From the NCBI RefSeq assembly GCF_001677475.2, contig NZ_CP015229.1: a stretch of 64,000 nt of DNA; one strand, written 5' to 3'. Under the pieces are notes generated by a model, which was not told the DNA's origin, did not search any database, and saw nothing but the letters and a program-made list of their open reading frames with translations. Positions 7,983 through 50,207 of this stretch are shown here, piece after piece; the first letter of the stretch is position 1, and the number at the start of each line of letters is the position of its first letter. Both the position numbers and the translations under genes were made by a program. The DNA is from Escherichia coli (GTDB lineage: Bacteria; Pseudomonadota; Gammaproteobacteria; Enterobacterales; Enterobacteriaceae).

Positions 7983-9278
<1,296 letters not shown>

Positions 9279-9424
9279 AACTATCAGCCGGGTCATTATC
9301 GCCTGGCTGATTTTTAGCTCACTGTAAATTATCTCATTTATTACATACATTAGCTTACAATCGCTTTAAATATGACAGCATAACCTTTACACAATTTAGT
9401 TCCAGAAAACAATCATTCGGAAAA

Positions 9425-10900
9425 ATGATTCGGTCAACACGTGTTTCCCTAGGGTTATTCTTTAAATATTTTTTATCGTTAACGAAAATTGATCCTGGTC
9501 AAAACTATATATCTCTGCCATCAATAAAATCCAGCACTCACATTGCTCTCCTTTTTATGGTTTCTATGGGTACACAAAAATTAAAAGCTCAAGGCTTTTT
9601 TATTTTCAGTTTATTGCTGACGTTAATTTTATTTTGCATTACTACCTTATATAACGAAAACACGAATGTAAAACTCATCCCACAGATGAATTACCTGATG
9701 GTTGTTGTGGCTTTGTTTTTCCTTAACGCCGTCATTTTTCTTTTCATGTTAATGAAATATTTCACTAACAAACAAATTTTACCAACACTCATTTTAAGCC
9801 TTGCATTTTTAAGTGGCCTTATCTATTTAGTTGAAACCATTGTAATTATCCATAAACCAATCAACGGCAGTACACTGATCCAGACAAAGTCGAATGATGT
9901 TTCTATTTTCTATATTTTCCGCCAACTCAGTTTTATTTGTTTAACCTCGCTGGCGCTCTTTTGTTATGGAAAAGACAACATCTTTGAAAACAATAAGAAA
10001 AAAACTGGCATTCTGTTACTGGCGCTGATTCCTTTTTTAGTTTTTCCCCTTCTGGCACACAATCTGAGCAGTTATAACGCTGACTATTCTTTGTATGTCG
10101 TCGATTACTGTCCGGACAACCATACTGCGACCTGGGGAATCAACTATACAAAAATATTGGTTTGTTTGTGGGCATTTTTACTGTTCTTTATTATCATGCG
10201 TACACGATTAGCCAGCGAACTATGGCCGTTAATAGCATTATTATGTCTGGCATCGCTATGCTGCAACTTACTTCTACTGACTCTGGATGAGTATAATTAC
10301 ACCATCTGGTATATCAGTCGTGGGATTGAAGTTTCCAGTAAACTGTTTGTTGTGTCTTTTCTGATTTATAACATTTTTCAGGAACTGCAACTCTCCAGCA
10401 AACTGGCAGTTCATGATGTGCTGACCAATATTTATAATCGGCGCTACTTTTTCAACAGCGTAGAGTCATTATTGTCGCGACCTGTTGTTAAGGACTTCTG
10501 TGTCATGCTGGTTGATATTAATCAGTTCAAACGCATCAATGCCCAATGGGGACATCGTGTGGGTGATAAAGTGCTGGTTTCAATTGTCGATATTATCCAG
10601 CAAAGCATCCGCCCCGATGATATTTTAGCGCGACTGGAGGGTGAGGTGTTTGGCTTGCTGTTTACCGAACTCAATAGTGCCCAGGCAAAAATCATTGCAG
10701 AACGTATGCGTAAAAATGTCGAACTCCTGACCGGCTTTAGTAACAGATATGATGTTCCTGAACAAATGACCATCAGTATTGGCACGGTTTTTTCAACGGG
10801 TGACACGCGTAATATCTCGCTTGTCATGACGGAAGCAGATAAAGCCTTACGCGAAGCGAAAAGCGAGGGGGGCAACAAAGTGATTATTCATCATATTTAA
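9425..10900 (+). CDS. yeaI: Membrane protein with degenerate GGDEF domain (EGEVF) YeaI/CdgI
   Basis: ORF 9425..10900, 491 aa; multi-TM N-terminus; GGDEF-like C-terminus with EGEVF in place of GG(D/E)EF; AT-rich gene. Confidence 0.8.
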   Translation: MIRSTRVSLGLFFKYFLSLTKIDPGQNYISLPSIKSSTHIALLFMVSMGTQKLKAQGFFIFSLLLTLILFCITTLYNENTNVKLIPQMNYLMVVVALFFLNAVIFLFMLMKYFTNKQILPTLILSLAFLSGLIYLVETIVIIHKPINGSTLIQTKSNDVSIFYIFRQLSFICLTSLALFCYGKDNIFENNKKKTGILLLALIPFLVFPLLAHNLSSYNADYSLYVVDYCPDNHTATWGINYTKILVCLWAFLLFFIIMRTRLASELWPLIALLCLASLCCNLLLLTLDEYNYTIWYISRGIEVSSKLFVVSFLIYNIFQELQLSSKLAVHDVLTNIYNRRYFFNSVESLLSRPVVKDFCVMLVDINQFKRINAQWGHRVGDKVLVSIVDIIQQSIRPDDILARLEGEVFGLLFTELNSAQAKIIAERMRKNVELLTGFSNRYDVPEQMTISIGTVFSTGDTRNISLVMTEADKALREAKSEGGNKVIIHHI

Positions 10901-30566: not shown

Positions 30567-32477
30567 TTACCTGGAGGATGGTATCGCAAGGAAACGAACC
30601 GCACGGGCAATGTCACGGGTGCGCGGCGCTGGCGGCAGACTGGCGAGAAACGTCGCGCCGTAAGGGCGCATCACCAGCCGATTATCGCAAATCACCAAAA
30701 CCCCTCGATCGTCGGCGTCGCGAATCAGTCGCCCTACCCCCTGTTTGAGAGTAATGACCGCATCCGGCAGCTGTACTTCATCGAACGGGTCGCCTCCGCG
30801 CAAACGGCAATCTTCCATGCGCGCTTTTAATAGTGGATCATCCGGTGAGGTAAACGGCAACTTGTCGATAATCACCAATGACAATGTATCGCCACGCACA
30901 TCCACCCCTTCCCAGAAGCTGCTGGTTGCCACAAGAAGCGCGTTACCGGCGCTGACAAATTGCTGCAACAGTTGCCCTTTGCTGGTTTCCCCCTGCAACA
31001 AAACGGGAAGCGTCATGGTAGCGCGGAACTGCTCGGCCAGATCGCGCATCATGGCGTGCGAGGTACAAAGCATAAAACAACGACCGTTGTTAGCCTCGAT
31101 GATCGGTCGCAGCATTGCCGCCAGTTGCCTTGCGGAACCCGGTTGATTGGTTTGCGGCAGGTTGCGCGGCACACAGAGTAACGCCTGGCGGCTGTAATCA
31201 AACGGGCTGGGTAACAGCAACGACTCTGCCTGTTCAATGCCAAGCCGCGAGGTAAAATGATGCAGATCGTCATTCACCGACAGCGTTGCTGAGGTAAAGA
31301 TCCAGCTACCTGGTTTTTGCGCCATTAACTCTTTGAATTTATCCGCCACGCTGAGCGGCGTGAGTGCCAGAGTAAAATGGCGCGAAGTGCATTCGTACCA
31401 GTAGCTGTAGCCCGGCTGATTGATCTCTTTTAGCCGTTTCAGCCGCGTGCGATACAACGTGGCGCGCTCAAATGCCGCATCCAGCAAGGCGGAACGCCCC
31501 AGCGACAGTTTCGCCACGTCATAACAAAGTTCCAGGGTGTCATCGAGCAGTAAAAACGCCCGTTGAATTTGCGGATTAGCTAACAGTTCGCGCAGGTTTC
31601 CGCGATAACCTGGCTCGCCTAATTGCAGACGAAAATCCTGCGCACTCTGGGCAAGACGGTCGGCGCATTTTTGTAACTGCTGAGTGTCTTTTAATTCGGT
31701 GCGATAGGCGATGGTGATGTCTTTTGCCAGGTCGAGCAGTTGTCGACTGGAGAGTGACTGACCAAAATACTGGCTGGCAATGTCGGGCAGTTGGTGGGCT
31801 TCGTCGAAGATCATCACGTCAGCTTCCGGGATCAGTTCGCCAAATCCACTCTCTTTCACCACCATATCCGCCAGAAAGAGATGATGGTTTACCACCACCA
31901 CATCGGCGTCCATCGCTTTTTTGCGTGCTTTGACTACAAAGCAATCTTTATACATCGGGCAGTCGCTGCCAAGGCAGTTATCGTTGGTGCTGGTGACAAG
32001 CGGCCACGCCTGTGAATCTTCCGCCACGCTGACGCAGGTGCTGATATCACCATCGACTGTTTGATTAGACCAGGAGCGCAGCAGGATCACATCGCTTAAG
32101 ATTTGTACCGGCAGATCGCCCCCCGCCAGCGCCTGCTGTTCGAGACGTTCGAGGCAGAGGTAGTTTGAGCGCCCTTTCAGCAACGCCACATTGCCCGTGT
32201 ATTTCAATGCCTTTGAGACCGTTGGCAAATCGCGGCTGTAGAGCTGATCCTGCAACGCTTTTGAGCCGGTCGAGATAATGACTTTCTTTTTCGCCCGCAG
32301 CGCAGGAGCCAGGTAAGCGTAGGTTTTGCCCGTACCGGTTCCGGCTTCCACCACCAGCGGCTGGCCTTTTTCTATCGCCTGGGTGACGGCTACCGCCATC
32401 TGTCGCTGTGGTTCTCGCGGCTTAAAGCCTGGTATCGCTTTCGCCAGCTGACCGTCTGGTGCAAAATCGTCCGTCAC
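30567..32477 (-). CDS. yoaA: DinG-family ATP-dependent DNA helicase YoaA (Fe-S helicase)
   Basis: ORF 30567..32477, 636 aa; Walker A GTGTGKT; DEAH box. Confidence 0.85.
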   Translation of the reverse strand: MTDDFAPDGQLAKAIPGFKPREPQRQMAVAVTQAIEKGQPLVVEAGTGTGKTYAYLAPALRAKKKVIISTGSKALQDQLYSRDLPTVSKALKYTGNVALLKGRSNYLCLERLEQQALAGGDLPVQILSDVILLRSWSNQTVDGDISTCVSVAEDSQAWPLVTSTNDNCLGSDCPMYKDCFVVKARKKAMDADVVVVNHHLFLADMVVKESGFGELIPEADVMIFDEAHQLPDIASQYFGQSLSSRQLLDLAKDITIAYRTELKDTQQLQKCADRLAQSAQDFRLQLGEPGYRGNLRELLANPQIQRAFLLLDDTLELCYDVAKLSLGRSALLDAAFERATLYRTRLKRLKEINQPGYSYWYECTSRHFTLALTPLSVADKFKELMAQKPGSWIFTSATLSVNDDLHHFTSRLGIEQAESLLLPSPFDYSRQALLCVPRNLPQTNQPGSARQLAAMLRPIIEANNGRCFMLCTSHAMMRDLAEQFRATMTLPVLLQGETSKGQLLQQFVSAGNALLVATSSFWEGVDVRGDTLSLVIIDKLPFTSPDDPLLKARMEDCRLRGGDPFDEVQLPDAVITLKQGVGRLIRDADDRGVLVICDNRLVMRPYGATFLASLPPAPRTRDIARAVRFLAIPSSR

Positions 32478-32608
32478 ACTACCCCCTGTTGATTTGAACA
32501 GGGATTATGTCAGGATGAGGGCGCTTTCGCCAGTTGAAGTGATGACGGCGACCTCACATTGTGGCAGTCTTTACAGCACGAAAATGGAAGTATAATGAGG
32601 ACAAAATG

Positions 32609-32953
32609 ATGACTATCGTTCGTATCGATGCTGAAGCCCGCTGGTCTGATGTGGTGATCCACAACAACACGCTCTACTACACTGGTGTACCGGAAAACCT
32701 CGACGCCGATGCTTTTGAGCAAACCGCCAACACGCTGGCGCAGATTGACGCCGTGCTGGAAAAACAGGGCAGCAATAAATCGAGCATTCTGGATGCCACC
32801 ATTTTCCTGGCTGATAAAAACGACTTCGCGGCGATGAATAAAGCGTGGGATGCCTGGGTTGTCGCGGGTCATGCGCCGGTGCGCTGCACGGTACAAGCGG
32901 GTTTGATGAACCCGAAGTATAAAGTTGAAATTAAGATTGTGGCTGCGGTGTAA
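32609..32953 (+). CDS. yoaB: RidA/YjgF-family protein YoaB
   Basis: ORF 32561..32953; start set at MTIVRIDAEARW, 114 aa. Confidence 0.8.
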   Translation: MTIVRIDAEARWSDVVIHNNTLYYTGVPENLDADAFEQTANTLAQIDAVLEKQGSNKSSILDATIFLADKNDFAAMNKAWDAWVVAGHAPVRCTVQAGLMNPKYKVEIKIVAAV

Positions 32954-33374
32954 GCTTTATCGAAGCAAAATAAGTCAGACGATAATTTATCGATAATACT
33001 GGTCGGTTTTACATAAATCGACCAGAGATTAAGATATTACTGTTGATGCTCCTGCTAATTCATTATTTATTTTTATAATTTCAATTTTAGCTATAAAACT
33101 AACTATATAAATAAACATAACCATGCCGTTGTGTTCGCCCTTCGATTAGCATCTCTGGTTTTCTTTCTTAGCTGAACAATTTGGTTATAGCGTGAGAACT
33201 GACCGTTAATTTTCTCCCTCTTACTGGATAACACACCATGAGCTGCTACCTTTAAAACACCTGAATGTCAACAAGTTAACTCGTGCCATATCGTTATAAT
33301 CCCTTTGATATTAGATGCAAATTAAGGTCATATATAGCCTTATCGATAACATGGTTAATTTTAAGGATAAGAAT

Positions 33375-33674
33375 ATGCCTGCTGTAATAGATAAAGCCCT
33401 GGATTTCATTGGTGCCATGGATGTATCAGCACCAACACCAAGTTCGATGAATGAAAGTACGGCGAAGGGAATCTTTAAATATTTAAAAGAACTGGGAGTA
33501 CCCGCGAGTGCCGCTGATATTACGACGCGAGCTGACCTGGAAGGCTGGAACCCGGGTTTCACGGAAAAAATGGTTGGATGGGCAAAAAAAATGGAGTCTG
33601 GTGAACGCATTGTGATTAAAAATCCTGAATACTTTTCAACATATATGCAGGAAGAACTAAAAGCACTGGTCTAA
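33375..33674 (+). CDS. yoaC: DUF1889 protein YoaC
   Basis: ORF 33315..33674; start set at MPAVIDKALD, 99 aa; the overlapping minus-strand ORF is judged spurious. Confidence 0.7.
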   Translation: MPAVIDKALDFIGAMDVSAPTPSSMNESTAKGIFKYLKELGVPASAADITTRADLEGWNPGFTEKMVGWAKKMESGERIVIKNPEYFSTYMQEELKALV

Positions 33675-33793
33675 GTTAAATTTACATCAGCATAAATGGG
33701 TCAGGACGCTTTTAATCACATATGAAAAGCGTCCTTTTTCTCACAATCAAATAACCATCGGCTTCTATAACGAAAGCGATACGGATAAGTGTG

Positions 33794-33973
33794 TTACTCG
33801 TCTTCATCCTCAAAACGCGCCACGATTCGCTCGCCGGAATGGTTGGCACGCAGCTCTTCTGCCACCAACGCGATTGCCTGGCCGCTGCTCATCCCTTGAG
33901 CCATCAGTTCCTGGATCCGCTCGACAGCTTTTTGCTGCTGTTCATGGGTGAGTGAAGGTAAACCTGCAAACAT
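33794..33973 (-). CDS. yoaH: UPF0181 protein YoaH (59 aa)
   Basis: Manual translation of minus strand: [59 protein letters not shown]. Confidence 0.7.
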
Positions 33974-34046
33974 TGTTAACTCCTGCTAAATTGTTGGCGC
34001 TAATTATTTCATGCTACCCGGCACATAGCCAGTAGAGTCAGGACTG

Positions 34047-35408
34047 ATGAAGACGTTATCTCCCGCTGTGATTACTTTACCCTGGCGTCAGGACGCCGCT
34101 GAATTTTATTTCTCACGCTTAAGCCACCTGCCGTGGGCGATGCTTTTACACTCCGGCTATGCCGATCATCCATATAGCCGCTTTGATATTGTGGTCGCCG
34201 AGCCGATTTGCACTTTAACCACTTTCAGTAAAGAAACCGTTGTTAGTGAAAGCGAAAAACGCACAACGACCACTGATGACCCGCTACAGGTGCTCCAGCA
34301 GGTGCTGGATCGCGCAGACATTCGCCCAGCGCATAACGAAGATTTGCCATTTCAGGGCGGCGCGCTGGGGTTGTTTGGCTACGATCTGGGCCGCCGTTTT
34401 GAGTCACTGCCAGAAATTGCGCCGCAAGATATCATTCTGCCTGATATGGCAGTGGGTATCTACGACTGGGCGCTGGTTGTTGACCACCAGCGTCAAACAG
34501 TTTCTTTGCTGAGTCATAATGATGTCAATACCCGTCGGGCCTGGCTGGAAAGCCAGCAATTCTCCCCGCAGGAAGATTTCGCGCTCACTTCCGACTGGCA
34601 ATCCAATATGACCCGCGAGCAGTACGGCGAAAAATTTCGCCAGGTACAGGAATATCTGCACAGTGGTGATTGCTATCAGGTGAATCTCGCCCAGCGTTTT
34701 CAAGCGGCCTATTCTGGCGATGAATGGCAGGCATTCCTTCAGCTTAATCAGGCCAACCGCGCGCCGTTTAGCGCTTTTTTACGCCTTGAACAGGGCGCGA
34801 TTTTAAGCCTTTCGCCAGAGCGGTTTATCCTTTGTGATAATAGTGAAATCCAGACCCGCCCGATTAAAGGCACGCTACCACGCCTGCCCGATCCTCAGGA
34901 AGATAGCAAACAAGCAGAGAAACTGGCGAACTCAGCGAAAGATCGTGCCGAAAATCTGATGATTGTCGATTTAATGCGTAATGATATCGGTCGTGTTGCC
35001 GTAGCAGGTTCGGTAAAAGTACCAGAGCTCTTCGTGGTGGAACCCTTCCCTGCCGTGCATCATCTGGTCAGCACCATAACGGCGCAACTACCAGAACAGT
35101 TACACGCCAGCGATCTGCTGCGCGCGGCTTTTCCTGGTGGCTCAATAACCGGGGCACCGAAAGTACGGGCTATGGAAATTATCGACGAACTAGAACCGCA
35201 GCGACGCAATGCCTGGTGCGGCAGCATTGGCTATTTGAGCTTTTGCGGCAACATGGACACCAGCATTACTATCCGCACGCTGACTGCCATTAACGGACAA
35301 ATTTACTGCTCTGCGGGGGGGGGAATTGTCGCCGATAGCCAGGAAGAAGCGGAATATCAGGAAACTTTTGATAAAGTTAATAAGATATTACGCCAACTGG
35401 AGAAGTAA
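34047..35408 (+). CDS. pabB: Aminodeoxychorismate synthase component I
   Basis: ORF 34047..35408, 453 aa; chorismate-binding family. Confidence 0.9.
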   Translation: MKTLSPAVITLPWRQDAAEFYFSRLSHLPWAMLLHSGYADHPYSRFDIVVAEPICTLTTFSKETVVSESEKRTTTTDDPLQVLQQVLDRADIRPAHNEDLPFQGGALGLFGYDLGRRFESLPEIAPQDIILPDMAVGIYDWALVVDHQRQTVSLLSHNDVNTRRAWLESQQFSPQEDFALTSDWQSNMTREQYGEKFRQVQEYLHSGDCYQVNLAQRFQAAYSGDEWQAFLQLNQANRAPFSAFLRLEQGAILSLSPERFILCDNSEIQTRPIKGTLPRLPDPQEDSKQAEKLANSAKDRAENLMIVDLMRNDIGRVAVAGSVKVPELFVVEPFPAVHHLVSTITAQLPEQLHASDLLRAAFPGGSITGAPKVRAMEIIDELEPQRRNAWCGSIGYLSFCGNMDTSITIRTLTAINGQIYCSAGGGIVADSQEEAEYQETFDKVNKILRQLEK

Positions 35409-44042: not shown

Positions 44043-44501
44043 ATGACAATCACGGACCTGGTACTGATTCTTTTCATCGCCGCACTCCTGGCCTTCGCGA
44101 TCTACGATCAGTTCATCATGCCCCGCCGTAACGGCCCCACTCTGCTGGCAATTCCTTTGCTCCGGCGTGGTCGCATCGATAGCGTTATATTCGTCGGATT
44201 GATTGTCATTCTTATCTATAACAACGTCACGAATCATGGCGCGCTAATAACAACATGGTTATTAAGTGCACTGGCTCTGATGGGTTTTTATATATTCTGG
44301 ATCCGCGTTCCGAAGATCATCTTTAAACAAAAAGGTTTTTTCTTCGCCAATGTCTGGATTGAATATAGCCGAATCAAAGCGATGAACTTGTCGGAAGATG
44401 GCGTGTTGGTGATGCAATTAGAACAGCGTCGGCTGTTAATCCGCGTTCGAAATATCGACGATCTAGAAAAAATTTATAAGCTTCTCGTTTCAACTCAATA
44501 A
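44043..44501 (+). CDS. yobD: UPF0266 membrane protein YobD
   Basis: ORF 44043..44501, 152 aa. Confidence 0.8.
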
Positions 44502-44513
44502 GTTATGAATTTA

Positions 44514-44566
44514 GCCAAAGCTATGTTTAGTGTATTTTTAATAATCAGACATAGCTTAGGCTATAT
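44514..44566 (+). promoter_or_regulatory. Putative MntR operator(s) of the mntP promoter
   Basis: aaagctatgttt and acatagcttaggctata resemble the MntR palindrome AACATAGC-N-GCTATGTT as I recall it. Confidence 0.35.
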
Positions 44567-44665
44567 TACCTCTTCCCTTATTTGTTATTTATTTTAACGT
44601 TTCATTGATATATAAATCTAAATGAAAATCGTTATCAATAAAGCAATGAAATAATATATTCCAAC

Positions 44666-44673
44666 AGTTGTTT
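44666..44673. repeat. Left copy of 8-bp target-site duplication AGTTGTTT flanking the IS
   Basis: Identical 8-mer immediately outside both IS ends (44666-44673 and 47082-47089). Confidence 0.6.
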
Positions 44674-44765
44674 ATGAGACGACAATAACTCAGTCCGCCT
44701 GGCGCCGATTATTCTGGCCGGTTTTGTAACCTGAGTGTCATTTACATGATCCAACAGGAAATGGC

Positions 44766-46265
44766 GTGACGCTCAATACTTCTCAGGTCAGTTACTATAT
44801 GACTCAGCGTAAGAAAGGTATAACTCAGCATATCTCGGCCATGAAGGCTGGTATCTCAGTCCGTTCTGGTCGTCGGATCGAAAAAGGAGAGTGGGCAAAA
44901 AACAGTGTTCGGCACTGGCGCACACGCAAAGATCCTCTGGAAGCTGTGTGGGACAGCATGCTTGTTCCTCTGTTGAAAGAGAGGCCGGCTCTGACACCAA
45001 CAACTCTACTGGAGATGCTACAGGATAAATATCCCGGCCAGTACCCCAACAGCCTTCGAAGAACAATGCAACGGCGGGTTCGCGAATGGAAACTACAGTA
45101 TGGTACAGAGCAGGAGGTCATGTTCCGCCAGCAACATCAGCCCGGCCTGCGAGGCCTGTCGGACTTTACTGAACTGAAAGGTGTAGTTGTCACCATCGCC
45201 GGTAAGTTGTTGGCGCATAAGTTGTATCACTTCCGTCTGGAATGGAGCCACTGGAGCTGGATGCGGGTTGTTCTGGGTGGTGAGAGCTTCTCTGCTCTGG
45301 CTGAAGGCCTGCAGGAAGCCCTCGGACAACTGGGCGGAGTGCCGGTAGAACATAAAACGGACAGCCTGAGGGCAGCATGGAAACAACAGGGCGAAGATGG
45401 ACGCCGCGAGCTGACTGAGCGTTATGCTACTCTCTGTCAGCACTACGGAATGCAGGGCGTACACAATAATGCCGGTCGGGGCCACGAAAATGGCTCGGTT
45501 GAAAGTGCCCACGGACATCTGAAAAGGCGTATCTGTCAGGCGCTGATACTGCGGGGCAGTAACGACTTCAGCACCATAGAAGAATATCAGGCCTTCATCA
45601 CTCAGCAGGTTATGCGGCACAACCGTAACAATCAGGATCTGGTCAAGGAAGAACGTCTTCATCTGAAACCGCTGCCGCTTCGTCGCAGTGCTGACTATGA
45701 TGAGCTGACTGTGAGGGTTAGTCGCAGCAGTACCATCAATGTGAAGCACGTCGTCTACAGCGTACCTTCCCGGCTTGTAGGTCAACTGTTACGGGTCAGG
45801 TTATGGGACGATCGTCTGAGCTGTTACGTTGGCAGCAGCGAGGTCATGAGCTGCCCTCGCGTCAGACCAGAAAAAGGGAAGACGCGGGCCCGTCGTATCG
45901 ACTTCCGACATGTGATCGACAGTCTGGCAAAAAAGCCCGGTGCGTTCTGCCATGCAACGCTGAGAAATGACATCCTGCCGGACGATGAATGGCGGAGGCT
46001 GTGGCGTCGCTTATGTAATCATCTGGAGCCCGATATGGCAGGAAGGCTGATGGTACATGCCCTGAAACTGGCTGCAGGATACGACGATATCTCAGTCGTG
46101 GCAAAAGGTATGGAGCAGATGCTGAATACCCCGGGAAACGTGGATCTGCACCGGCTGATGCGCTTCCTGGGTATAAAAGAAAAGGCGTTGCCGGTAGTCA
46201 ATGTGATACAGCATAACCTGAGCAGTTATGAGCAACTACTGCGTGGCAAGGGAGGTTCGCAGTGA
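44766..46265 (+). CDS. istA: IS21-family transposase IstA
   Basis: ORF 44766..46265, 499 aa; N-terminal HTH-like region; start may be GTG 44766 or ATG 44799; stop overlaps istB start (GTGA). Confidence 0.85.
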   Translation: MTLNTSQVSYYMTQRKKGITQHISAMKAGISVRSGRRIEKGEWAKNSVRHWRTRKDPLEAVWDSMLVPLLKERPALTPTTLLEMLQDKYPGQYPNSLRRTMQRRVREWKLQYGTEQEVMFRQQHQPGLRGLSDFTELKGVVVTIAGKLLAHKLYHFRLEWSHWSWMRVVLGGESFSALAEGLQEALGQLGGVPVEHKTDSLRAAWKQQGEDGRRELTERYATLCQHYGMQGVHNNAGRGHENGSVESAHGHLKRRICQALILRGSNDFSTIEEYQAFITQQVMRHNRNNQDLVKEERLHLKPLPLRRSADYDELTVRVSRSSTINVKHVVYSVPSRLVGQLLRVRLWDDRLSCYVGSSEVMSCPRVRPEKGKTRARRIDFRHVIDSLAKKPGAFCHATLRNDILPDDEWRRLWRRLCNHLEPDMAGRLMVHALKLAAGYDDISVVAKGMEQMLNTPGNVDLHRLMRFLGIKEKALPVVNVIQHNLSSYEQLLRGKGGSQ

Positions 46266-49251: not shown

Positions 49252-49876
49252 AACAGAACTGTACCTCGTTTAACCCGAAATCTGTTATCACATACAACGT
49301 TAATTATGGCAAGCCATTTTTAAACATGTCTCGATCAGACGCACAAATCTCGATACGTCTTCCACTTTTTTTGCACACTTATGCAACGGAATACGCGCCG
49401 ATATATCATTGTGCTTAACCTTGCCAGTTCAGGCAGATACTTAAACTGACGTATTTTCTAACATAGTTCAATAAGTTCAGTTGTTCCAGGCCAGTAGGAG
49501 AAGTTATTACATAGTGCGTGCAATATCACATTTTCTGCTATGCAATGAATAAAAAGTTATATCACTTTTTCTCATAAAACAGTCAGTTAACGGCCACCAA
49601 TTACCCCAAAGAGAAGTCAATCCCCAATGGTATTGTAAATTTAAAATAAGAAAAATTGATGAATGCGCAAAAAAATCAAGAGAGAAACGTTTCGCTAATA
49701 AATAATACCACGCTTAATCACAAATCCGATGTAAACATCCTAATAAATTAATGGGCTAAATATCTTTTTCTGATATCTCGTTACGCAAATAAATAATATG
49801 ATAATTATTTGAAGTCAGACCAGAGTTTTAATTTGAAGCAGTTGCACCATGACAGTGCGTATAATCAGGATGAATT

Positions 49877-49904
49877 GAGTAACCCTTCAACGACGGGGTT
49901 ACTC
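49877..49904 (-). terminator. Hairpin downstream of yebO (possible terminator)
   Basis: gagtaaccc...gggttactc 9-bp stem just 3' of yebO stop. Confidence 0.4.
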
Positions 49905-49919
49905 AAGATTGAGGAAGGA

Positions 49920-50207
49920 TTATCGTTCGGCGACCAGACGAATAATATCTTCGTCTTCAACCGATTTTTGACTCTCAACGGTCTTTTTATCTGCTTTCTC
50001 TGGTTCATTTGCTTCGCACAAACGACGTAACAGTGCATTTTGACGTTTTTGCTGATCCAACAACGCCTCAAGCAGTTCAATCTGTTCGTTAGTCCGTGAA
50101 CTGGCACGATTGATAAAAAACCACAAGATGAGCCCGATAAGAAGAACCACCACCGATACAACCAAAGACGCTATGTTCATCACGCCTGAATTTACAACTT
50201 CGTTCAT
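49920..50207 (-). CDS. yebO: DUF2633 membrane protein YebO
   Basis: ORF 49920..50207, 95 aa; N-terminal TM then charged/coiled C-terminus. Confidence 0.75.
   Translation of the reverse strand: MNEVVNSGVMNIASLVVSVVVLLIGLILWFFINRASSRTNEQIELLEALLDQQKRQNALLRRLCEANEPEKADKKTVESQKSVEDEDIIRLVAER

Follow-up and report, generated by a model that had tools for sequence, protein, structure and literature searches.

Genomic context of the yoaB-yoaC spacer

In the 64,000-nt stretch of Escherichia coli chromosome analysed here (hereafter the window), the yoaB stop codon ends at position 32953 and the yoaC ATG occupies 33375-33377. The strongly AT-rich gap originally noted between the two genes was borne out: the spacer (32954-33374) measured 421 bp and had a G+C content of 0.328, compared with 0.497 for the 64-kb window, a value as low being reached in only 0.8% of 421-bp windows. 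Together with yoaC, a terminator and the remnant of a pentapeptide-repeat gene, the spacer makes up an islet whose overall G+C content (0.37) was lower than that of the flanking genes (0.52/0.55). The features of the interval are listed in Table 1.

Within the spacer, three parts can probably be distinguished, namely the yoaB 3' UTR, a filler of ~210 bp, and the yoaC promoter and leader. Nucleotide diversity (pi) in 14 E. coli genomes reached 0.041 in the filler, the maximum of the locus, compared to 0.015 in yoaB and 0.005 in the promoter and leader.

Table 1. Features identified between yoaB and yoaH, in order of position in the window.
Feature	Position	Strand	Basis or remarks
yoaC islet	32954..33793	none	Escherichia-lineage insertion between the convergent yoaB and yoaH stop codons
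yoaB 3' UTR	32954..33029	+	Ends where the RNA 3' end was mapped
Candidate H-NS high-affinity motif	32984..32993	-	TCGATAAATT; exact match, the only one in the 64-kb window
Weak antisense promoter	32986..32999	-	TSS 32986(-); -10 TATTAT, the reverse complement of 32994-32999; transcript antisense through yoaB
Stem-loop	32999..33025	+	11-bp stem (CUGGUCGGUUU/AAAUCGACCAG), 5-nt loop; no U-tract after it
Filler	33030..33239	none	AT-rich, fast-evolving, ~210 bp; no conserved ORF or RNA structure
Published candidate YhaJ box	33081..33096	none	TCAATTTTAGCTATAA here, TCAATTTTATCTATAA in K-12 and CFT073; PMC6765310 SI Tables S3/S4
Weak yoaC TSS with -10-like hexamer	33247..33259	+	TSS A33259 (TSS-seq); TACCTT at 33247-33252
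Cross-genus yoaC upstream module	33293..33374	+	~82 bp; unstructured leader, Shine-Dalgarno AAGGA (33364-33368), near-invariant GGTTAATTTTAAGGATAAGA
TATAAT, possible -10	33295..33300	+	Perfect hexamer; predicted TSS near 33307; Escherichia-specific; no usable -35
Promoter-like pair	33305..33334	+	-35 TTGATA (33305-33310), 18-bp variable spacer, -10-like CATATA (33329-33334)
yoaC	33375..33674	+	Islet cargo; DUF1889, 99 aa; Pfam PF08986 (E = 2.4e-48); PDB 2es9/2jn8; RefSeq annotation
Bidirectional terminator hairpin	33703..33739		Terminator of yoaC (+, then T-run) and yoaH (-); inverted repeat I4
Pentapeptide-repeat gene remnant	33741..33793	-	~12 codons of the 5' end; alignment

Probable acquisition of the yoaC islet in the Escherichia lineage

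In Salmonella, Klebsiella and Enterobacter, 0-11 bp separate the stop codons of yoaB and yoaH, and the segment 32954-33793 is therefore an insertion of the Escherichia lineage, an origin that also accounts for the AT-richness of the spacer. A published ortholog table for K. pneumoniae is consistent with the absence of the islet from the yoaB-yoaH site (PMC3415461), and in Kluyvera another gene occupies this slot. In a genome scan that was incomplete, as it missed E. coli's own representative and did not place E. fergusonii, yoaC was found between yoaB and yoaH only in Escherichia (six lineages), and in unrelated contexts in Buttiauxella, Citrobacter, Lelliottia, Kosakonia and Klebsiella. The islet was fixed in essentially all E. 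coli (5355/5426 genomes). Three more YoaB variants, followed up to date the insertion, all led to Escherichia loci already carrying the islet.

Of the cargo, yoaC is an uncharacterised DUF1889 gene whose deletion leads to boric acid sensitivity (PMC11502571). Term-seq 3' ends mapped at its terminator on both strands (PMC7815308), at K-12 coordinates 1894497/8(+), corresponding to 33739/40 in the window, and 1894457(-), corresponding to 33699. The pentapeptide-repeat gene was intact in lineages L004, L005 and L044 (150-aa ORF; Pfam PF00805, E = 2.5e-20), and its sequence here is that of a second cargo gene which appears to be decaying.

Neither a mobility gene nor a tRNA, a target duplication, or terminal or flanking direct or inverted repeats were found at the islet. 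A mobile-element origin was rejected, as there was no phage match and the 'plasmid' matches were mislabelled chromosomes or Klebsiella DUF1889 genes, leaving no identifiable donor among the phage and plasmid matches. The islet, now ~0.84 kb and originally at least 1.27 kb, would have landed precisely at the junction of two convergent stop codons, those of yoaB and yoaH, bringing with it yoaC and the pentapeptide-repeat gene. The spacer is thus likely to be the upstream, non-coding part of a small foreign AT-rich insert of the Escherichia lineage, and an unusual 421-bp AT-rich gap in the core E. coli chromosome would be explained as foreign DNA between two stop codons.

Promoter and leader of yoaC

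The segment 33240-33374 was the least polymorphic of the locus in E. coli, with a pi of 0.003 in its last part (33293-33374), and in our judgement it probably holds the promoter and leader of yoaC, kept under strong purifying selection. In the alignments, cross-genus conservation began at ~33293, and the resulting ~82-bp module is found alongside yoaC in five other genera, at chromosomal sites that differ. Both hexamers of the promoter-like pair and their 18-bp spacing were conserved in Citrobacter, Kosakonia, Klebsiella and Lelliottia, the sequence between them being variable. The -10-like CATATA reads CATAGT or CATATT in other genera, the Escherichia version having lost T6. These last ~82 bp would form a portable unit made up of a -35 TTGATA, 18 bp, a -10 CATAnT, an unstructured AU-rich leader and a Shine-Dalgarno sequence, so that yoaC would move between genomes together with its own promoter and leader.

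RNAalifold predicted 0 pairs over 15 yoaC leaders, and the single-sequence z-score was +0.48. A structured cis-regulatory leader (riboswitch, thermosensor) was rejected on the grounds that no covarying structure and no Rfam match were found. Two coding readings were discarded as well, a yoaC lengthened in frame at its N terminus (ATG 33351 or 33315) and a 34-codon ORF that begins at GTG 33283 upstream of it. Neither has a conserved start codon, and in E. albertii, Kosakonia and Klebsiella the frame is broken by 1-nt indels. The GGTTAATTTTAAGGATAAGA motif just before the ATG was unstructured and more conserved than the YoaC protein itself. The module is present in at least six genera, and it is conceivable, if improbable, that this motif binds a sequence-specific post-transcriptional regulator of yoaC (protein or trans-acting sRNA) wherever yoaC lands.

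The TATAAT that had been singled out upstream of yoaC lies exactly at 33295-33300 and matches the -10 hexamer at 6/6 positions; it is a possible candidate for the yoaC -10. A TATAAT on the + strand occurred in 53% of dinucleotide shuffles of the spacer, and 17% of them had one 40-150 bp upstream of the ATG; a second copy is present at 33074. By itself the hexamer is not above chance, and a perfect TATAAT in such AT-rich DNA is no evidence of a promoter. The sequences CAAGTT, ACAAGT and AAGTTA, found 17, 18 and 16 bp upstream, respectively, gave no -35 hexamer match, which is why a simple promoter scan missed the TATAAT, and GT stands in place of the TG of an extended -10. The TATAAT is conserved in Escherichia (GATAAT in E. 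whittamii), and the aligned hexamer reads GATGTT, GACAAT, GATAAA, AATGAT or others elsewhere.

Published TSS-seq data list only 33259(+) for yoaC and no start at the position predicted from the TATAAT (PMC3415461). This start (1892041(+) in NC_000913.2) was represented by 21 reads versus 448 for yoaB, and its -10-like TACCTT was conserved in 6/7 Escherichia sequences. The data are old and shallow, the starts at 33259(+) and 32986(-) both being weak (21 and 12 reads, respectively). In Escherichia the ancestral yoaC -10 would have decayed, and present-day transcription apparently begins further upstream, with a weak start observed at 33259 and a possible one at ~33307 from the Escherichia-specific TATAAT.

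Occupancy by LysR-type regulators and candidate H-NS sites

Two LysR-type regulators have reportedly been located on the spacer in vivo, YhaJ by ChIP-seq peaks in both EHEC and UPEC (PMC6765310 SI) and YeiE by ChIP-exo (PMC6237786). Transferred through CFT073 coordinates, the YhaJ peaks map to 32805-33234 with centres at 33015-33033, and the filler lies under the peak. The candidate YhaJ box TCAATTTTAGCTA fits T-N11-A and is imperfect, with TCA-N7-CTA instead of TCA-N7-TGA. Its centre (~33088) is at -171 from the TSS at 33259, ~-219 from 33307 and ~-102 from 32986(-); for none of these three starts was the recognition site located near -65. The peak centre falls on the hairpin following yoaB, 66 bp from the box. 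Its distance from the yoaC TSS that was observed, ~230 bp, exceeds what classical LysR activation allows, and no change in yoaC expression was found in the YhaJ supplement searched.

With its low G+C content (0.328) and an exact copy of the candidate motif TCGATAAATT, the spacer is a candidate for H-NS-bound DNA. The motif overlaps the palindrome TTATCGATAA (32987-32996), which is repeated at 33340-33349. By our own estimate, chance alone would give about two 10-mers of this kind, and the palindrome was not conserved outside E. coli.

A model built on the original prediction would take the hexamer at 33295-33300 as the principal -10 of yoaC, kept silent by H-NS, with Fis as a modulator, through curved AT-rich upstream DNA, activators counteracting the silencing. 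This model is tenable, though we consider it the less probable one. The perfect hexamer is conserved in Escherichia and lies in a strongly constrained segment, the 33% G+C and exact H-NS nucleation motif belong to foreign DNA, a classic H-NS substrate, and yoaC is activated by YeiE, whose site lies upstream of RNA polymerase (PMC6237786). However, the hexamer lacks a -35 and is at chance level for the composition of the region, and the only TSS found, at 33259, places it inside the 5' UTR. Moreover, outside Escherichia the aligned hexamer is a weak one, and it is the downstream -35/-10 pair that is conserved.

Search for a hidden RNA or small protein in the filler

The filler showed frequent indels, and most of it is missing from Escherichia sp. 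MOD1-EC7003 owing to a 150-bp deletion in the spacer. The suggestion that the region might host an unannotated small RNA or small ORF was not supported. For an sRNA, there was no Rfam match, and the middle of the spacer is both the most polymorphic part of the locus and mostly deleted in one species; the stem-loop after yoaB was the only conserved element relevant to a small RNA. A search with all 4227 Rfam families (E <= 10) across 32000-34500 returned only two chance matches, one of them to a snoRNA of eukaryotes and the other at the terminator of yoaC. Among the six ORFs of 22-43 codons in the spacer, none was conserved (14 E. coli genomes and five other Escherichia lineages), each being broken by stops or frameshifts in further Escherichia species as well as in certain E. 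coli strains; none had a Pfam match or was annotated in MG1655.

The filler is largely unconstrained foreign DNA. Its AT-rich sequence would yield promoter-like sites by chance, including the weak antisense start at 32986 and the second TATAAT, and would offer binding sites to nucleoid proteins and to YhaJ and YeiE, the two LysR-type regulators. It is unlikely that the middle of the spacer is instead what is left of another, decayed gene of the islet (e.g. a regulator) rather than DNA that never coded. The neighbouring pentapeptide-repeat gene does show the islet losing genes by deletion, and most E. coli retain a 43-codon ORF, but the spacer middle has no Pfam match, its G+C content (~0.32) is well under that of yoaC (0.43), and none of the Escherichia lineages with a 440-470 bp spacer has an intact or longer ORF.

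The 3' end of yoaB

The hairpin predicted just after yoaB proved real and misplaced by 8 nt, its G+C-rich arms lying at 32999-33005 and 33019-33025 rather than within about 32991-33017. Folding of 32954-33035 gave -22 kcal/mol (z = -5.6), a value as good being obtained in 0/200 shuffles, and a 7-bp G+C-rich hairpin arose in 1.8% of shuffled spacers. Across six Escherichia lineages, 93% of the cells of the stem-loop were paired, with compensatory changes at two pairs and G.U wobbles in L005, L007 and L044 that are valid on the + strand only. The stem-loop was present as a single copy in 5418 E. coli genomes, which rules out membership of a REP or MITE family. An ancestral yoaB terminator was also rejected, other genera having no room for it between yoaB and yoaH.

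In Term-seq data, the dominant RNA 3' end of this region (K-12 1893787(+), seen under two conditions; Suppl. file 1 of PMC7815308) corresponds to position 33029 in the window, 4 nt beyond the stem, and was classed as 'orphan' (PMC7815308). The best interpretation is that the yoaB mRNA ends here, so that a published 'orphan' end can now be assigned to yoaB, and there is a good probability that the stem-loop defines or protects this end. Of the features of an intrinsic terminator, the stem-loop has the G+C-rich stem and the mapped RNA 3' end but not the U-run: the stem is directly followed by AGAGAUUAAGAU, and a terminator scan returned 0 sites in 32500-33900. The segment 32954-33029 would now serve as the yoaB 3' UTR. 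Transcription of yoaB would run on into the AT-rich DNA and stop there, probably by Rho, and the RNA would then, as the most likely mechanism, be trimmed by 3' exonucleases back to the base of the hairpin. The 3' end of yoaH has the same form (a hairpin plus 4 nt, no U-tract), with a Rho termination region downstream. For the + strand, the BCM data set has no Rho-dependent site listed within the spacer (PMC7815308), and Rho plus trimming is the most likely route at yoaB by analogy only.

The 'orphan' label would favour a separate RNA, either an sRNA derived from the 3' UTR, with its end at the hairpin, or an RNA antisense to yoaB from 32986(-), perhaps controlled by YhaJ. For the latter, the minus-strand TSS (1891768(-) in NC_000913.2) was assigned to yoaA with a 509-nt UTR (PMC3415461); its -10, TATTAT, is a 5/6 match, and the YhaJ peak centres lie 29-47 bp upstream of it, the position expected for a controlling LysR tetramer. 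Such an independent regulatory RNA nevertheless seems improbable, since no + strand TSS is listed between the yoaB TSS (32578) and the hairpin (PMC3415461), the hairpin lacks a U-tail for Hfq, and no Rfam match was found. The antisense start was represented by 12 reads only, and its -10, limited to E. coli and close relatives, was not conserved in three Escherichia lineages (L004, L005 and L007). AT-rich foreign DNA creates spurious promoters. In the equally improbable case that YhaJ, bound at 33015-33050, does drive the 32986 antisense start, quinone/nitroaromatic stress would be coupled to yoaB/yoaA expression.

That the inverted repeat at 32999-33025 is mainly a protein-binding DNA palindrome (for YhaJ or another factor) is the least probable reading: the YhaJ peak centres on or beside it in UPEC, EHEC is bound too, and the published YhaJ box is imperfect and 66 bp away, but ChIP-seq resolves only tens of bp, the repeat is unlike the TCA-N7-TGA box, its arms co-vary between species (GT/AC to AC/GT, T/A to C/G) in a way that keeps pairing and changes base-specific contacts, its G.U-type asymmetries fit + strand RNA, and an RNA 3' end maps 4 nt past it.

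Overall, the spacer is ordinary regulatory DNA, in all likelihood without a hidden RNA gene or small protein. The promoter and leader in its 3' third, their strong constraint and the occupancy by LysR-type regulators uphold the regulatory side of the original interpretation, its small RNA or small ORF finding no support. The locus offers an example of an eye-catching AT-rich spacer without a new RNA or protein; its importance beyond annotation is small.

Comparison with known systems

Stem-loops are known to mark the 3' ends that processing leaves on mRNAs terminated by Rho (Dar and Sorek 2018, discussed in PMC7815308). Like these, the yoaB stem-loop is a stable hairpin without a U-tract, and the RNA 3' end lies a few nucleotides past the stem, within a long 3' UTR. 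It differs from them in that it sits in foreign DNA and would have been acquired rather than evolved with yoaB, the role of Rho being drawn by analogy.

The spacer resembles the promoters of the YhaJ regulon (yqjF, ybiJ, yhaK, yhhW) in having a peak in EHEC as well as UPEC with a T-N11-A-type box beneath it. Unlike in those promoters, the box is imperfect and lies ~170 bp upstream of the yoaC TSS rather than near -65, and the spacer positions within it are polymorphic in E. coli.

The start at 32986(-) is similar to the pervasive antisense transcription arising from AT-rich DNA in E. coli, as it is weak (12 reads), has a good -10, a poor -35 and poor conservation, and runs antisense into the neighbouring gene, whereas its coincidence with a transcription-factor ChIP peak sets it apart from ordinary antisense starts and makes regulated use conceivable.

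Finally, the yoaC islet compares with the small AT-rich islets acquired horizontally by enterobacteria, which are typically H-NS-bound, H-NS binding of the yoaC islet being only a candidate property. As in those islets, it occurs in one genus, sister genera lacking it at this site, its G+C content is ~13-15 points below that of its flanks, and it combines an orphan gene having its own promoter with gene decay and spurious promoter-like sites. In contrast to the usual islets, it is very small (0.84 kb), has no integrase, tRNA site, direct repeats or plasmid or phage relative, and has become fixed in essentially the whole species.

Probable islet insertion between yoaB and yoaH

The window was 99.4-99.6% identical to phylogroup-B2-like E. 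coli strains (e.g. ATCC 11775), and the yoaB-yoaC interval carried no annotated feature in the two RefSeq records inspected (ATCC 11775 and MG1655). Neighbourhoods of yoaB in other genera were retrieved via YoaB homologues. The convergent yoaB and yoaH stop codons lay 5 bp apart in Salmonella, 0 bp in Klebsiella and 11 bp in Enterobacter, and the same two codons were separated by 840 bp in E. coli (32954-33793). G+C content was 0.37 in this segment and 0.43 in yoaC, compared to 0.52 in yoaB and 0.55 in yoaH. The whole segment (hereafter the islet) thus appears to be an insertion. The orthologs tabulated by Kim et al. 2012 agree: b1809 and b1811 are neighbours in K. pneumoniae (KPN_02326/02327), and b1810 corresponds to KPN_03300 (PMC3415461). 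As the segment was inserted and its G+C is below that of the flanking genes, its AT-richness would be a signature of foreign DNA rather than a property evolved for a promoter. An unrelated 350-aa gene with a faint DUF7716 match fills the same slot in Kluyvera, which suggests that this convergent junction is a recurrent insertion site.

In a YoaC genome scan, Escherichia alone (E. coli and five non-coli lineages) had yoaC in the yoaB-yoaH interval; the gene occupied several unrelated neighbourhoods in Buttiauxella, Citrobacter, Lelliottia, Kosakonia and Klebsiella. This peptide-pattern scan of genome contigs was non-exhaustive, returning no E. coli reference although YoaC is nearly identical there, so absence from its list (e.g. 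of E. fergusonii or Salmonella) is not evidence of absence. No integrase, flanking repeat, plasmid relative or phage relative was found. Several PLSDB records of 4.7-5.4 Mb and two Klebsiella ones of about 0.7-0.8 Mb (the whole set including NZ_CP134663.1 and CP125156.1) are chromosomes or chromosome fragments mislabelled as plasmids; matches to them are therefore not evidence of plasmid carriage.

The islet is also decaying, as a comparison of lineages shows. Escherichia sp. E1V33, E. whittamii and one more Escherichia lineage (L044) possessed an intact pentapeptide-repeat gene of 150 aa (PF00805, E = 2.5e-20) on the minus strand past yoaH, between yoaH and the yoaC terminator, its start lying 6 nt beyond the yoaH stop. 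In E. coli only some 12 codons from the 5' end persist; two lineages carry internal deletions, and E. albertii a different deletion.

Features of the locus and nucleotide diversity (pi) across 14 E. coli genomes. Positions are those of the window unless a comparison locus (L) is named.
Feature	Position	Strand	pi
yoaA	30567-32477	-	
yoaB	32609-32953	+	0.015
Spacer, yoaB-proximal	32954-33029		0.018
H-NS nucleation motif, exact match TCGATAAATT (sole one in window)	32984-32993		
Spacer, middle	33030-33239		0.041 (highest in locus)
YhaJ box TTATAGATAAAATTGA (PMC6765310)	33081-33096	-	
Spacer, yoaC-proximal	33240-33374		0.005
Its terminal part	33293-33374		0.003
yoaC	33375-33674	+	0.022
Hairpin ending yoaC (+) and yoaH (-)	33703-33739		
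Pentapeptide-repeat remnant	33741-33793	-	
yoaH	33794-33973	-	
pabB	34047-35408	+	
Intact pentapeptide-repeat gene	L004 4390-4842; L005; L044 3678-4130		
Kluyvera gene (metagenome scaffold)	L030 3381-4433		

Composition and conservation of the spacer

The strongly AT-rich region first described between yoaB and yoaC spans 421 bp (32954-33374) with a G+C content of 0.328 (window: 0.497), a value as low being reached by only 0.8% of the window's 421-bp windows. Three other stretches of the window have a 421-bp G+C of at most 0.36, at about 9161-10170 (minimum 0.309), 44201-44880 (0.335) and 49271-50060 (0.321), as low as the spacer or lower. Of 5426 complete E. coli genomes, 5355 covered at least 80% of the spacer. 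When seven Escherichia spacers were aligned, the hairpin and 33240-33374 stood out as conserved blocks, separated by an indel-rich middle that aligned poorly; Escherichia sp. MOD1-EC7003 lacked 150 bp, chiefly from this middle.

A perfect 10-bp palindrome, TTATCGATAA, occurred at each spacer end (32987-32996, overlapping the H-NS motif match, and 33340-33349), 353 bp apart. It was perfect only in E. coli, and two copies are estimated to be near chance expectation at this composition.

A hairpin at the 3' end of yoaB

The hairpin noted after yoaB exists, although it lies at 32999-33025, shifted rightwards by 8 nt from its original placement, and is longer than first described (11-bp stem CUGGUCGGUUU/AAAUCGACCAG, 5-nt loop). 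The 82 nt nearest yoaB folded at -22 kcal/mol (z = -5.6), matched by none of 200 shuffles, and a comparable 7-bp G+C-rich hairpin occurred in 1.8% of shuffled spacers. Among six distinct Escherichia sequences, 93% of stem cells were paired (7-43% in slid controls), with compensatory double changes at two pairs (G-C to A-U and U-A to C-G); the covariation score was matched or exceeded by 19 of 500 shuffles, a modest statistic from six sequences only. G.U wobbles in three lineages were valid solely on the + strand. With a single copy in E. coli, it is not a REP-type repeat.

Term-seq in two growth conditions showed a dominant 3' end on the + strand, K-12 1893787 (Adams et al. 2021, Suppl. file 1; PMC7815308), which corresponds to 33029, 4 nt beyond the stem; it was classed as 'orphan' because it lies >50 nt past yoaB. 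Having no U-tract, the hairpin is missing one of the features that define an intrinsic terminator. The yoaH message has an end of the same form, at 33699 (-), 4 nt past its hairpin, without a U-tract and with a very high Term-seq score, a bicyclomycin-sensitive (Rho) region having been mapped downstream at 33639 (-), antisense to yoaC (PMC7815308). By analogy, yoaB transcription may stop in AT-rich DNA and its RNA may then be trimmed back to the hairpin. The yoaC RNA ends at 33739/40 (+), after a T-run.

Regulator occupancy and the spacer middle

The suggestion of an unannotated small RNA or small ORF was not supported: the Rfam search gave no match, and all six ORFs (22-43 codons), none with a Pfam match, were interrupted in other Escherichia species, several of them also in some E. 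coli strains.

H-NS-type DNA is plausible here. The LysR-type regulator YhaJ gave a ChIP-seq peak in UPEC CFT073 (2045235-2045664, centres 2045445 and 2045463) and was bound here in EHEC as well (PMC6765310); on the window the peak covers 32805-33234 and is centred at 33015 and 33033. The published box, an imperfect TCA-N7-TGA, is some 170 bp away from the yoaC start that was observed, far off the usual -65 position. AT-rich imperfect inverted repeats (33063-33114, 74-87% complementary) are centred on it. YeiE, another LysR-type regulator, was reported to bind upstream of the yoaC RNAP site and activate yoaC (PMC6237786).

Promoter, leader and start codon of yoaC

As predicted, the spacer is a promoter region, with a yoaC promoter and reported regulator binding. 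Kim et al. 2012 listed one + strand yoaC start (1892041 in NC_000913.2; 21 reads vs 448 for yoaB), corresponding to 33259 with a -10-like TACCTT, and a minus-strand start (1891768, 12 reads) assigned to yoaA with a 509-nt UTR (PMC3415461). The latter corresponds to 32986 (-), with a -10 TATTAT, and runs antisense through yoaB.

The TATAAT was found exactly at 33295-33300, but is unremarkable at this composition (+ strand copy in 53% of shuffles; a second at 33074-33079, immediately upstream of the YhaJ box). It lacked a -35 partner, was not called in the promoter scan, and no start was listed where it predicts one (PMC3415461).

Cross-genus conservation upstream of yoaC began abruptly at about 33293. 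The conserved block held -35-like TTGATA/TTGAAA and -10-like CATAGT/CATATT at exactly 18 bp with freely varying intervening sequence, a sigma-70 promoter signature. At this pair the Escherichia -10 is CATATA, with T6 lost, and Escherichia alone carries a perfect TATAAT, 5 bp ahead of the -35. In Buttiauxella (L008-L011, some 60-25 nt before yoaC), an 8-9 bp insertion breaks the spacing, and a new near-consensus TTGTCA-N17/18-TTTAAT lies nearer the ATG; the promoter appears to have turned over there. These differences may together be read as turnover of the promoter around a gene that is portable.

The leader did not fold (RNAalifold, 0 pairs on 15 sequences; single-sequence z +0.48). A coding leader was rejected, as in-frame upstream ATGs become ACG, AAG or GTG elsewhere and 1-nt indels occur inside the most conserved stretch. 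Cross-genus comparison supports a yoaC start at 33375 (99 aa) with the SD AAGGA at 33364-33368. Because of the in-frame ATGs at 33315 and 33351, gene callers made yoaC 119 aa (or 107 aa) long in the old K-12 annotation and in some assemblies (loci L035, L040, L041 and L043 among them).

Overall reading

Overall, the original prediction was partly right, and the spacer is ordinary, forming the non-coding portion of a foreign islet that is small, old and decaying. It would give yoaB a 3'-end hairpin and supply yoaC with a self-contained promoter and leader; the middle is probably AT-rich filler free of constraint, with spurious weak starts and with LysR-type factors bound. Least ordinary are the near-invariant unstructured leader accompanying yoaC from genome to genome and the antisense start coinciding with the YhaJ peak; that either has a function is very unlikely. 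Every element is of a known kind, and most are already in published genome-wide data sets.
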